A DNA stretch of 64,000 bases from an uncultured Gammaproteobacteria bacterium. Lineage in GTDB: Bacteria > Patescibacteriota > Microgenomatia > UBA10105 > UBA927. Of the stretch, positions 2,287 to 6,426 are shown piece by piece (the stretch's first letter is position 1; each line of letters opens with the position of its first letter). The position numbers and the translations under genes were made by a program. Location of the stretch: contig CAYMYO010000001.1 in the NCBI GenBank assembly GCA_964394685.1, forward strand, positions 14-64,013. The letters run 5' to 3'. The notes under the pieces were generated by a model. That model made no database searches, was not told the origin of the DNA, and worked only from the letters and a program-made list of their open reading frames with translations.

Positions 2287-3246
2287 ATGTTTAAGGGATT
2301 ACTCTTCAGGATTATTGTTTCGATAGTTGTTGTGGTGGGGGCCATTTTCCTTTTCTTCGGACCGGTGGGAACAAAAAAAGAAATGGAGCTGTTTGTGGTG
2401 CCACAGAACGCGGAAAATTTTGACGTGGCGGGGGAATTGAAAAAGCAGGGATTTGTCCGAAGCGAGTGGATTACAAGAATTATTCTTGAAGGTTCAACCA
2501 TCGAGCCGGGAGGATACCGGCTCAATAAATCAATGTGGTTGTGGCAGGTGACATTTACGATGAAAAGCAAACCGAGTCTTGTGTGGGTGACAATTGTTGG
2601 TTGTCAACGCAGGGAGCAGATTGCAGAAGTTTTGCAAAAAGCATTAGGATGGGACCAGACAAAACTTAATCAGTGGAACAACGCATATAAAAGCATGGAA
2701 TCGGATTATTTGGAAGGCGTATATTATCCCGACACGTATTTACTTCCCGTTGATGAAACAGGTGGTCAGGTAGCCAAACGGTTTATTGACCGCTTCAATG
2801 AAAAGTTTGCTCCGTATTCCCAAAAATTTCAGGACGCAAATATCCGGTGGGTAACAGCACTGAAAATTGCATCCTTAATTGAGCGGGAAGCGGGAGGGGC
2901 AAGTGACATGAAGCTTATTTCCGGCATTATCTGGAACAGGTTAAATATTAATATGCGCCTTCAGATTGATGCGACCATGCAATATACAAAAGGTCAGAAA
3001 TCTGATGAAAGTTGGTGGGGAGGAATAGATTTGACGGAAAAATTGAGCGACTCGCCGTACAACACATACCTCTATAAAGGCTTACCGCCTACACCTATTT
3101 GCAGCCCGGGAGTTATCTCCATTGAAGCAGTTTTATATCCGGAGGAAACAGACTGTCTGTATTATATTCATGACCGGAGCCGCCAGATCCACTGTGCAAA
3201 AACGTATGCGGAACATAAAAAGAATATTCAATTGTATTTACAATAG
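2287..3246 (+). CDS. mltG: Endolytic murein transglycosylase MltG (YceG family).
   Basis: N-terminal TM segment (FRIIVSIVVVVGAIFLFF). Motifs EGVYYPDTYLLP, IASLIEREAG, PYNTYLYKGLPPTPICSPG. Confidence 0.85.
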   Translation: MFKGLLFRIIVSIVVVVGAIFLFFGPVGTKKEMELFVVPQNAENFDVAGELKKQGFVRSEWITRIILEGSTIEPGGYRLNKSMWLWQVTFTMKSKPSLVWVTIVGCQRREQIAEVLQKALGWDQTKLNQWNNAYKSMESDYLEGVYYPDTYLLPVDETGGQVAKRFIDRFNEKFAPYSQKFQDANIRWVTALKIASLIEREAGGASDMKLISGIIWNRLNINMRLQIDATMQYTKGQKSDESWWGGIDLTEKLSDSPYNTYLYKGLPPTPICSPGVISIEAVLYPEETDCLYYIHDRSRQIHCAKTYAEHKKNIQLYLQ

Positions 3247-4532: not shown

Positions 4533-4733
4533 TTACGCTGCTAATTTTACATTCTTTGCAGCCGGTCCTTTTTCTCCATCAACGACGTCAAATTCAACTT
4601 TCGCTCCAACTTGAAGCGCGTCAAACATAACACCGACTAGATCTTTTGAATGAAAGAAAAGGTCTTTTGTTTCGCCGTCACGGGCGATAAAACCAAATCC
4701 TCTATCTGTTTTTACTTTAATTGTACCAGTCAT
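4533..4733 (-). CDS. cspA: Cold-shock protein (CspA family).
   Basis: MTGTIKVKTDRGFGFIARDGETKDLFFHSKDL: RNP1/RNP2 cold-shock domain, 66 aa. Confidence 0.9.
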   Translation of the reverse strand: MTGTIKVKTDRGFGFIARDGETKDLFFHSKDLVGVMFDALQVGAKVEFDVVDGEKGPAAKNVKLAA

Positions 4734-4784
4734 AGTAGTTTGTCTCCTTTCTGTTCACCATTATAACAGATTTTGCAGTATTAC

Positions 4785-4858
4785 GTGATTTCGAACGGTT
4801 ACTCAATGGTTACAAGGCTATTTTCAATCAAATTTTAGTTCGAAATCGTTGAGCGGAA
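4785..4858 (+). repeat. Copy 1 of an ~75-95-nt repeated element with a 10-bp terminal inverted repeat (GATTTCGAAC...GTTCGAAATC). It overlaps the promoter region of the LigT-like gene.
   Basis: GATTTCGAAC at 4787-4796 and GTTCGAAATC at 4838-4847 flank a conserved core GGTTAcaAGGCTATTTTcaaTCAAA, followed by GAGCGGAA. It is near-identical to the copy at 5434-5529. Confidence 0.6.
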
Positions 4859-4871
4859 CCAGAACCTAAGA

Positions 4872-4880
4872 TGATATAAT
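4872..4880 (+). promoter_or_regulatory. Extended -10 promoter element (TGaTATAAT) immediately upstream of the LigT-like ATG. It implies a leaderless or near-leaderless transcript.
   Basis: TGATATAAT ends 8 nt before ATG 4888. Confidence 0.4.
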
Positions 4881-4887
4881 TCTAGCT

Positions 4888-5412
4888 ATGCTTCAGAGTG
4901 TTATCCTTATCCCTATTCCTTCAGCGGATCCTGTTATTGGTGAATGGCGAAAAAAATATGATCACGTAGCACTCCATGGGATTCCGGCACATATTACACT
5001 TCTTTTTCCATTTAAAGAATCATCTCAAATTACTCAAGAAATAATAAAGAAACTCGAAGGTATATTTTTGAAGGTTAAACAATTTCCTTTTACCTTAGAT
5101 AGGATAAATACATTTCCGAACGTGATTTTTCTTGATCCGAATCCAAGAGATGAGTTTATTAAGTTAATCGAAGCAATTGTTCATATTTTCCCGGAAAATT
5201 CGCCCTATGAAGGAAAGTACTCGTCGATAAATCCTCATGCAACTATTGCACAGATAAGTGATATTGAAAAGACAGATTCATTGAAGAAACAAATAGAAGA
5301 AGATATTTCAATAAACTTTCCAATTCAATGTCTGGCAAAGGAAGCATGGTTAATGATTGAAGATGAGAAAGGTGAATGGCATATTCAATCAAAATTTCAA
5401 TTTCTTTCCTAG
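4888..5412 (+). CDS. 2H phosphoesterase superfamily protein (LigT / 2'-5' RNA ligase-like).
   Basis: Two H-x-T/S-x motifs (HITLLF and HATIAQ) with the spacing typical of LigT-like 2H enzymes. GC content is lower than the surrounding core genes. Confidence 0.55.
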   Translation: MLQSVILIPIPSADPVIGEWRKKYDHVALHGIPAHITLLFPFKESSQITQEIIKKLEGIFLKVKQFPFTLDRINTFPNVIFLDPNPRDEFIKLIEAIVHIFPENSPYEGKYSSINPHATIAQISDIEKTDSLKKQIEEDISINFPIQCLAKEAWLMIEDEKGEWHIQSKFQFLS

Positions 5413-5433
5413 TGTCTTGTACCCCCATACTGC

Positions 5434-5529
5434 ATGATTTCGAATGATTGCTCCAGGGTTATGAGGCTATTTTTAGTCAAATATTAGTTCGAAATCGTTG
5501 AATTTGAATTTTCAACTGTTTGAGCGGAA
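5434..5529 (+). repeat. Copy 2 of the repeated element (same orientation as copy 1). It carries a 19-nt insertion that forms an extra small hairpin.
   Basis: GATTTCGAAT at 5436-5445 and GTTCGAAATC at 5487-5496. The extra hairpin GTTGAA-tttgaatt-TTCAAC lies at 5497-5516, then GAGCGGAA at 5522-5529. The copy is preceded by TGTACCCCCA (5417-5426). Confidence 0.6.
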
Positions 5530-5552
5530 AAGTAACTATATTTGCTGTTTCC

Positions 5553-5580
5553 TTGACTTTAGGTAAAAAAATGATAATAT
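5553..5580 (+). promoter_or_regulatory. Sigma70-like promoter for the 5640 gene.
   Basis: -35 TTGACT at 5553-5558. Extended -10 TGaTAATAT at 5572-5580, with a 16-nt spacer to TAATAT. Confidence 0.45.
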
Positions 5581-5639
5581 CGCATTAGGACAATATAAAT
5601 ATGTTATAATGATACGTAAATGCGTATTTATTAATAATT

Positions 5640-6209
5640 ATGAGATTCAAAGAAAATTATTTAGCCGAAATAAATAGAAAAAAATCGCAAGCAGAAATTA
5701 ATGCTACAAATGCTCAACTAGAAGGAGAACGTCTTAAAACAATTCGCTCAGCAAATCGTGCCCGTTTTGAAGCTGAAGAAGCTCGTCAAAAAGCCAAATT
5801 TTTTGAATTTCTTCAATCCACACCAATACCTCAATTAATGCACGATGCAAAAGATGTTATTCCTGGTGTTGAACTTAATGAAAGTACTCGTGGAGGACTA
5901 AACCTTCAATCCTGGCAAGAAGGAGAATTAAAAATCGAAAGATTTTCTCAGCAATATGATTTCGAATGGACTGACTATGAAGTTAGTTTTAATAATGATC
6001 TTAGTATTTCTGTTCATGTTCAAGATGATGGTGCAGTCACATTTAGATTCGGAGGCCCAGCAGATTGCGATGATCGGTTCCAACAACGAAGAACAATAAA
6101 TTATCGGTCATGGTCACAAAATCCAAGTTTACTTGATAATACCCTATTACATGCAATACATCATCCTACAAAACATCATCAAGTTAATATTGTATCAAGC
6201 CCGTTTTAA
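5640..6209 (+). CDS. Hypothetical protein (189 aa), very AT-rich.
   Basis: Complete ORF downstream of a good promoter. No recognisable domain. The N-terminus looks coiled-coil (EINATNAQLEGERLKTIRSANRARFEAEEARQKAK). Confidence 0.45.
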   Translation: MRFKENYLAEINRKKSQAEINATNAQLEGERLKTIRSANRARFEAEEARQKAKFFEFLQSTPIPQLMHDAKDVIPGVELNESTRGGLNLQSWQEGELKIERFSQQYDFEWTDYEVSFNNDLSISVHVQDDGAVTFRFGGPADCDDRFQQRRTINYRSWSQNPSLLDNTLLHAIHHPTKHHQVNIVSSPF

Positions 6210-6237
6210 TATCTATTTACCTAACGTGTACCCCCAG

Positions 6238-6300
6238 CCGGATTCCCGTTCGACTCGAAGACTCGCTCAGAGCGCAGCGAACCGGATTATTTTGTGCCGC
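6238..6300 (+). terminator. GC-rich structured element with terminator-like architecture downstream of the 5640 gene.
   Basis: CCGG(attcccg)TTCG ... CGAACCGG is an interrupted inverted repeat with an internal CGCTC-a-GAGCG hairpin, followed by ATTATTTT. It is preceded by TGTACCCCCA (6229-6238), the same 10-mer found after the LigT-like gene. Confidence 0.4.
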
Positions 6301-6397
6301 GTAAGGGAGTCGGACCCTTGTTGATAGATTGAGAATCTACCGTACTAACCGTTATACGAACGCGGCAGAAGTTACAGCTAATTCTATCAATAACCTC

Positions 6398-6426
6398 TTG
6401 ACATCACAAGCGAAGTTCGATAGACT
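6398..6426 (+). promoter_or_regulatory. Sigma70-like promoter for greA.
   Basis: -35 TTGACA at 6398-6403, a 17-nt spacer, -10 TAGACT at 6421-6426. Confidence 0.5.

Follow-up and report, generated by a model that had tools for sequence, protein, structure and literature searches.

We describe an array of single-gene cassettes in a 64 000-nucleotide stretch of genomic DNA ('the window': positions 14 to 64 013 of the forward strand of contig CAYMYO010000001.1, assembly GCA_964394685.1, which is labelled an uncultured Gammaproteobacteria bacterium and placed by GTDB in the Patescibacteriota, Microgenomatia). The array forms an inserted islet of ~1515 bp (4775..6289, not assigned to a strand) between a cold-shock protein gene (csp) and a tRNA-Glu gene, and is punctuated by copies of a ~90-nt repeat that we call element E. 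Element E is probably an attP-like site bounding single-gene cassettes that would have accreted at tRNA-Glu and been mobilised in trans. The resident tRNA-Glu(CTC) gene (6294..6366, minus strand; ARAGORN; 59 bits in Rfam), which went unmentioned in an earlier sequence-only reading of this DNA, is the key to the locus.

The csp protein (4533..4733, minus strand; PF00313, E=2e-19) clusters with proteins of the Microgenomates group of the candidate phyla radiation (CPR), and six related contigs (L005-L009 and L013; L numbers denote the loci compared with the window) share the synteny GreA-LysS-radical SAM-Ham1-SerRS. In all six, tRNA-Glu(CTC) has csp as its immediate downstream neighbour, ~20 nt away, and there is no islet. 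Because csp adjoins tRNA-Glu directly in these relatives, the ~1.5 kb at 4775-6289 represents an insertion. It stands in place of ~4 bp (TGAC) of the empty site, as seen when the window (cagatttt/gcag...ggatta/ttttgtgccgcg) is set against L005 (cagattttTGACttttgtgccgcg), and its extra bases are bounded on the right by a point 5 nt beyond the 3' end of the resident tRNA-Glu and on the left by the extended -10 of csp (TGTTATAAT; 4760..4768, minus strand; read from the letters, with a putative promoter role). This -10, the final conserved flank sequence ahead of the left junction, is kept in both L005 and L017. The islet was present in three out of three Logan contigs from the source samples. Its relatives do not hold an identical locus: that of L005 is empty, and that of L017 breaks at the same left junction and has other content, namely an M23 peptidase, a LigT-like gene (74% identical) with only remnants of element E nearby, and a 104-aa open reading frame (ORF). 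The GC content of 4777-6287 (0.348, versus 0.41-0.43 in the flanks) is reached by only 5% of equal-sized windows, which bears out the AT-rich islet proposed in the sequence-only reading. That reading had also suggested a cassette delimited by repeats, or a duplicated gene-plus-3'-element unit, and the suggestion gains from relatives without the islet and from other single genes bounded by the same element.

Within the islet, a direct repeat of 74 nt (82% identity; 4779-4852 versus 5428-5501) corresponds to two copies of element E, E1 and E2, which flank a LigT-like gene as first noticed from the letters. E1 (4775..4864, plus strand; nhmmer 78-81 bits) is the first element of the array and is 5'-truncated, the 10-nt core GTACCCCCAT, hereafter O, being gone and a ~80-nt body with the arms GATTTCGAAC and GTTCGAAATC being retained. 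E2 (5419..5529, plus strand; nhmmer 88-90 bits) is a full internal element, composed of O (copy 1, 5419..5428, plus strand) and body, with a 19-nt insert peculiar to this genome just before a GAGCGGAA tail. Both assignments also rest on the alignment of copies. The arm pattern GATTTCGAA-N30-60-TTCGAAATC occurs exactly twice in the 64 kb, where shuffles expect none, so that the arm pair described earlier is indeed shared, save for one mismatch in the left arm of E2 (GATTTCGAAT). The GAGCGGAA tail, listed earlier as part of the element, is present but peculiar to the window's genome and outside the family consensus. Likewise, the 10-mer TGTACCCCCA follows both stop codons exactly as reported (5418-5427 and 6227-6236, 5-17 nt past the stops) and is absent from the rest of the window, but the consensus identifies it as the 5' end of element E and not as a separate motif.

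Further copies were found via contigs carrying LigT homologues, followed by one metagenome pattern scan and a profile search. A contig from a metagenome-assembled genome at NCBI (L014) holds four E copies and one E3-like element (see below), and the pattern scan and profile search added loci L021-L025 and L031-L035. The consensus of the family is ~90 nt long: (A/T)GTACCCCCATACTACGCGATTwCGAACAGTTGCTCAAGGGGTAyGAGGCTATTTTyrAyCAAATTTTAGTTCGAAATCGTTGAATTTGAG, with the block GAGGCTATTTT invariant in 15 out of 16 copies. A profile built from these 16 copies matched the window only at E1 and E2, both inside the islet. The family is confined to clusters, at ~9 loci besides the window, where copies are spaced 0.4-2.1 kb apart (407-2139 bp) and all co-oriented. 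Between consecutive copies there is usually one co-oriented gene, mostly an orphan; the cassette genes with family matches encode a cupin, a cytidine deaminase, an Asp/Glu racemase, a CAP-domain protein and a HicAB pair (L021). Content varies between loci: L014 and L024 have a common thymidine-kinase flank and different cassettes, one and the same upstream unit, a GIY-YIG leader with O, continues into one E body in L014 and into another in L021, and the E-body subtype upstream of the LigT cassette differs between the window and L014.

This distribution bears on whether element E might be a dispersed repeat of the miniature inverted-repeat transposable element (MITE) or repetitive extragenic palindromic (REP) type that happened to insert twice here. 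Its length of ~90 nt and its short inverted repeats would suit such an origin, as would a solo 3' half-copy in L031, 8.5 kb from the array. Conservation nevertheless runs 17 nt and 12 nt past the inverted repeats, target-site duplications are absent, and the copies are co-oriented and clustered. With only two copies in the window, element E is not a genome-wide REP, the generic repeat against which the sequence-only reading had cautioned, and we regard chance insertion as very improbable. The solo half-copy (GGGGCTATTTTCAACCAAATTTTAGTTCGAAAT; L031 1504-1550) directly follows the stop of a response-regulator-like gene, the genes on its two sides being convergent, and parts of element E may therefore exist or function outside arrays.

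The attachment-site reading draws its main support from the 3' end of tRNA-Glu. L031 has the same neighbourhood as the window (beta-lactamase, tRNA-Glu, GreA, LysS, SerRS, SecA), and the opposite strand of the tRNA-Glu gene in L031 and L032 runs from the trailer (TTTGAGGCTAAATTGAAGCTAACGTT) through GTACCCCCAT into CCGGATTCGAACCGGAG. Reverse-complemented, the core O, with which element E begins, is thus identical to the final 10 nt of these tRNA-Glu genes. Past O, a further ~17 nt of E can be aligned to the T-arm if five inserted bases are allowed; for the whole stretch, 27 nt at the start of E against 22 nt at the end of the tRNA, p is about 0.01. A third structure, E3 (6228..6287, plus coordinates), follows the second cassette and comprises O (GTACCCCCAg) and a T-arm/acceptor fragment of tRNA-Glu, in the order CCGGATTC, a 32-nt insert (6246-6277) and CGAACCGGA, with a T-run at 6287-6293. 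Compared with the tRNA-Glu 3' end of L031 and L032, it is identical at 17 of 18 positions before the insert and at nine of nine (CGAACCGGA) after it. The third, GC-richer inverted repeat of the sequence-only reading (6237-6287) therefore exists, but is actually a tRNA-Glu 3' fragment. The same architecture recurs after the last cassette in L014 (2013) and L025 (3223), and tRNA-like fragments share the strand of the resident tRNA-Glu and follow it downstream in the window and in both L031 and L032, as does one copy in L025.

Integration at the 3' end of a tRNA should produce four classes of junction. All four are present with O as their boundary, and in each the flanks change exactly at O (15 or more cases). 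Trailer-O-tRNA, read as attB, is found in L031 and L032. Trailer-O-E body, read as attL-like, is found at L021_8244 and L032 5578, and in degenerate form at L031 10637. Cassette-O-E body, read as an attP-like internal junction, is represented by E2 of the window and 10 or more others. Cassette-O-tRNA fragment, read as attR-like (the E3 type), occurs in the window, L014 and L025.

We propose that element E is an attachment-site-like repeat made up of O (10 nt), a degenerate copy of the T-arm (~17 nt) and a conserved arm of ~65 nt carrying two inverted 11-mers; this arm is where a recombinase or accessory proteins would probably bind. The mobile unit would consist of an E body, a promoter, one gene and O, and site-specific recombination, with the crossover falling at O or right beside it, would join each such unit in turn to the 3' end of tRNA-Glu. 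Successive additions of this kind would give the order E1 (left end, O lost), LigT, E2, orphan, E3 and tRNA-Glu; internal junctions of the tandem array would be full attP sites, as E2 has the look of being, and E3 would be O joined to a T-arm fragment of tRNA-Glu. Since the cassettes encode no recombinase, the enzyme would have to act in trans, and the units may still be mobile today. The E body would in addition provide the next gene with A/T-rich upstream promoter sequence and, in some copies, with a -35.

This last property connects element E with the promoter early stem-loops (PeSLs), intergenic promoter plus stem-loop modules found in hyperplastic regions of T4-like phages (PMC2839356, PMC4122927). 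Genes could conceivably be inserted, deleted or swapped by homologous recombination between portable promoter-bearing repeats, with no dedicated recombinase. Like PeSLs, element E occupies hypervariable regions, where it follows a stop codon and precedes a gene that is usually an ORFan; its 3' TTGAAT forms a well-spaced -35 for a TATAAT in ~5 of 15 copies, preceded by an A/T-rich tract; E bodies are mosaic between homologous cassettes; and no recombinase gene was found nearby. Homologous exchange, on the other hand, would not be expected to yield at least 15 junctions, tRNA and trailer junctions included, that switch at one 9-10-nt core. Most E copies, moreover, have a complete separate promoter further downstream, and no terminator-type stem-loop was found in E. 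We therefore consider this explanation unlikely. The further likenesses are the clustering of a conserved module, the supply of promoter sequence, modular gene shuffling and free-standing GIY-YIG genes near E in two loci. Element E differs in that it belongs to a cellular chromosome, conserves the -35 in some copies only, leaves the -10 outside the repeat, and has a tRNA-derived core with fixed junctions.

Several observations weigh against serial site-specific recombination at tRNA-Glu. No recombinase or integrase was found within 15 kb of the islet, in the 27 window ORFs scanned or at any E-bearing locus. E1 and L021_6163, each the first element of its array, are without O, which makes these left ends non-canonical as attL sites. 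Some of the L025 elements are located upstream of the intact tRNA. The acceptor stem of the resident tRNA-Glu (GCCGCG/CGCGGC) differs from that of the fragments (GCCCCCA), so that the original target would be another allele or a paralogue, now truncated. All three E3-type fragments carry an insert of 28-33 nt at the same T-loop position (between GGATTC and GAACC). Finally, the E sample comprises ~10 loci from a single clade.

Some features of these tRNA sequences deserve separate mention. The T-loop inserts (window 6246-6277; L014 2032-2059; L025 3174-3205, minus strand) are unrelated in sequence and mostly GC-rich hairpins. The T-loop of the resident tRNA-Glu(CTC) is non-canonical (TCCGACT, not TTCGAAT), and both this loop and the GCCGCG acceptor stem recur in L005; as these differ from the canonical tRNA-Glu type behind the repeat core, the resident gene might be no substrate for whatever targets the core. 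The tRNA-Glu trailer consists of a tandem pair of GAGGCYAAAT-like motifs conserved across genomes (L031 11890-11915; L032 7529-7554; L021 8218-8244; L025 5195-5222, minus strand), which could be a processing or termination signal, and the invariant GAGGCTATTTT block of E resembles one unit of this motif.

The inverted arms had led the sequence-only reading to present element E as a structured element, which our folding analyses contradict. Single-sequence folds on both strands gave z-scores of -1.1 to +0.3, which are not significant, RNAalifold on 16 copies gave -0.57 kcal/mol and no consensus fold, and the 10-bp arm helix showed no compensatory pairs, variation breaking pairs and the percentage paired being no better than in shuffles. 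In Rfam 15, E was unmatched at the gathering threshold or at E<10, the window yielding only the tRNA and a sub-threshold cspA over csp. A structured RNA formed by arm pairing (riboswitch, small RNA, terminator or attC-like single-strand hairpin) can still point to the perfect 10-bp inverted repeat of E1 and to one covarying pair in a small internal hairpin (alignment columns 35-39/43-47); given the foldings and the empty Rfam search, it seems to us highly unlikely. An attC site was rejected on similar grounds, there being a single 10-bp arm pair and no second (L) box besides the RNAalifold value.

Protein-binding sites in double-stranded DNA, by comparison, are expected to be conserved without covariation, and the arms could be such sites, for a recombinase or accessory factor more likely than for a regulator. 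A purely regulatory function would make the inverted 11-mers, which contain TTCGAA and are 51 bp apart centre to centre, the operators of a dimeric regulator, as raised in the sequence-only reading, with the tRNA likeness being historical. That element E is always upstream of a gene and co-oriented with it, and that the GAGGCTATTTT block is invariant in 15 of the 16 copies, would agree with operators. Several copies (L014 a, b and d), however, have non-complementary or degenerate arms and keep the rest of E, no regulator gene is linked, and the arrays, the empty site, the identity to the tRNA end and the junction classes would all be left unexplained; an exclusively regulatory role is thus improbable.

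We also considered a coding origin. A frame of 27 codons in E (alignment columns 4-87; window 4775-4851 and 5418-5500) is open in 13 of 16 copies, reads [SC]TPILRD[FY]EQLL.GYEAIF.QILVRNR followed by a stop, ends in TPILRDYEQLLKGYEAIFDQILVRNR before that stop, and has a pN/pS of 0.54, whereas the remaining frames have values of 0.68-1.04. We rejected a present-day coding role for it, as the C-terminal end of a target gene, since it lacks a start codon and extends only 17-59 aa from stop to stop, and a coding reading also fails on third codon positions, which show no excess variability. When 5.8e9 proteins were searched with a profile of this frame, only calls of 41-83 aa over other E copies and no long homologue emerged. 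Public contigs carry these 'hypothetical protein' annotations on the E frame (P0047-P0052), and element E accounts for this set of spurious calls.

A phage or plasmid origin was rejected. Two pattern scans of IMG/VR for E gave one chance match, inside a coding region, and searches of INPHARED and PLSDB gave nothing. The context of E is chromosomal (csp, tRNA-Glu, GreA, LysS, SerRS, SecA), with GreA and then LysS genes past the tRNA-Glu(CTC) of the window. A strict-pattern scan of GTDB, among whose species representatives the window's genome apparently does not figure, gave one chance match in a Verrucomicrobia gene.

Among known systems, the tycheposon islands of Prochlorococcus are anchored at tRNA genes and arise by successive site-specific integrations that leave partial tRNA repeats (bioRxiv 10.1101/2020.12.28.424599). 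The E arrays resemble such tRNA-anchored islands in being inserted directly 3' of a tRNA, in the direct repeats of the tRNA 3' end between tandem units, in the empty sites of relatives, in their variable low-GC cargo mostly of unknown function and in their degenerate remnants. Unlike them, E units comprise one gene each, measure 0.4-2 kb, lack integrase, replication and regulatory modules at all of the ~10 loci, share just 10 nt with the tRNA in addition to a conserved ~80-nt non-tRNA arm, and reside in a CPR (Microgenomates) bacterium. Cis-mobilizable elements (CIMEs) accrete as att-flanked elements devoid of an integrase (PMC5704250), and likewise form att-bounded tandem units presumed to be mobilised in trans; E units are far smaller, with an attP-like site at every internal junction, and no cognate integrase-bearing element was identified for them. 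Integron cassettes and clusters of attC sites lacking integron-integrases (CALINs) are similar in their arrays of co-oriented single-gene cassettes, with many ORFans and a toxin-antitoxin pair (HicAB, L021), in the conserved 60-140-nt imperfect inverted-repeat site between cassettes and in the integrase not being adjacent. E copies also show the spacing and orientation expected of integrons and CALINs, namely two or more sites in 4 kb and small cassettes that all point the same way. Element E, however, has neither L-box pairing nor a conserved hairpin, its cassettes bring their own promoters, its arrays are anchored at a tRNA gene, and its borders lie at the tRNA-derived core and not at the G/TT of the R' box: a G/TT cassette boundary was rejected, as the flanks switch where GTACCCCCAT ends, and the right arm GTTCGAA comes only ~55 nt further downstream. 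The closest concept combines the tRNA-anchored island, in which successive integrations leave partial tRNAs, with CIMEs that are att-flanked and have no integrase.

The genomes of CPR bacteria are very small, and to our knowledge descriptions of mobile elements in them are few. Cassette arrays of this kind, with one gene per unit, conserved attP-like borders and a tRNA anchor, would give these organisms a compact route of gene gain and loss and would be intermediate between classical tRNA-targeting islands and integron cassette arrays. More speculatively, the E arrays may amount to an integron-like gene-cassette system, hitherto undescribed, of CPR (Microgenomates) bacteria, in which single-gene circles bearing a ~90-nt attP with a tRNA-Glu core are captured serially at tRNA-Glu by an unlinked recombinase acting in trans. 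If so, these tiny genomes would possess a dedicated hotspot for sampling ORFan and nucleotide-metabolism genes. The attachment-site reading predicts that the cognate recombinase is encoded elsewhere in these genomes, and the 90-nt element offers a search handle for such hotspots in metagenomes.

Cassette 1 (4888..5412, plus strand) encodes a 2H/LigT-like (YjcG-like) phosphoesterase of 174 aa, the LigT-like identity proposed from the letters being upheld by Pfam (PF13563, E=1.8e-20), by NCBIfam and by the presence of both HxT motifs (H35 and H117). Its homologues (45-79% identity) are found in varied contexts, and a general linkage between element E and LigT was rejected, since the distant homologues in L018 and L027-L030 are without E and L017 has remnants only. 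The gene has a putative extended -10 (TGATATAAT; 4872..4880, plus strand) 7 nt ahead of its ATG, in the sequence GATGATATAATTCTAGyTATG that also precedes the L014 homologue. As it has no Shine-Dalgarno sequence, its mRNA is probably leaderless. Several cassette genes (LigT, cytidine deaminase) likewise show TGATATAMT 3-7 nt ahead of the ATG and no Shine-Dalgarno sequence (window 4872-4890; L014 1026-1042; L024 1625-1640, minus strand), in contrast to core genes such as csp, which have a clear GGAG; judged by these letters, such an arrangement suggests leaderless mRNAs.

Cassette 2 (5640..6209, plus strand) encodes an orphan of 189 aa with no family match, predicted to form a long N-terminal helix and a small beta domain. 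Its AF2 model (predicted local distance difference test score, pLDDT, 61) was too poor for a fold search. Among 5.8e9 protein clusters only the protein itself was found, and among 1.84e9 there was one representative homologue; remote homologues adjoin E copies in L022 and L031. The family is rare and fast-evolving, with members beside element E in other genomes. The promoter region of the orphan, with a putative TG-extended promoter TTGACT-16-TAATAT (5553..5580, plus strand), is conserved ahead of the remote homologue in L022.

The islet has also altered the surroundings of csp. In relatives (L005 5907-6028), csp follows tRNA-Glu on the same strand by ~20 nt without a terminator, and the two may therefore be co-transcribed. 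In the window (4733-4775, 6294-6409), the islet places 1.5 kb of antisense genes between them, and the extended -10 is all that csp keeps upstream.

Free-standing GIY-YIG nuclease genes (83-92 aa), divergently oriented, adjoin element E in L014 (2096-2347, minus strand) and L021 (7483-7761, minus strand). Their leaders (L014 2350-2379; L021 7805-7837) contain the conserved motif yGTAGCTTTAGCGAAr between variable stem halves of 4-5 bp, and the motif is also found ahead of an unrelated 77-aa gene (L014 265-300). The gene and its leader could represent a candidate nuclease for cassette turnover, or a small RNA motif. Locus L030, from a more distant CPR genome, has a different 38-nt repeat (1979-2016 versus 2979-3016; 89% identity) ahead of two small genes within a LigT-containing run of small co-oriented genes; this repeat may be an unrelated repeated promoter module.

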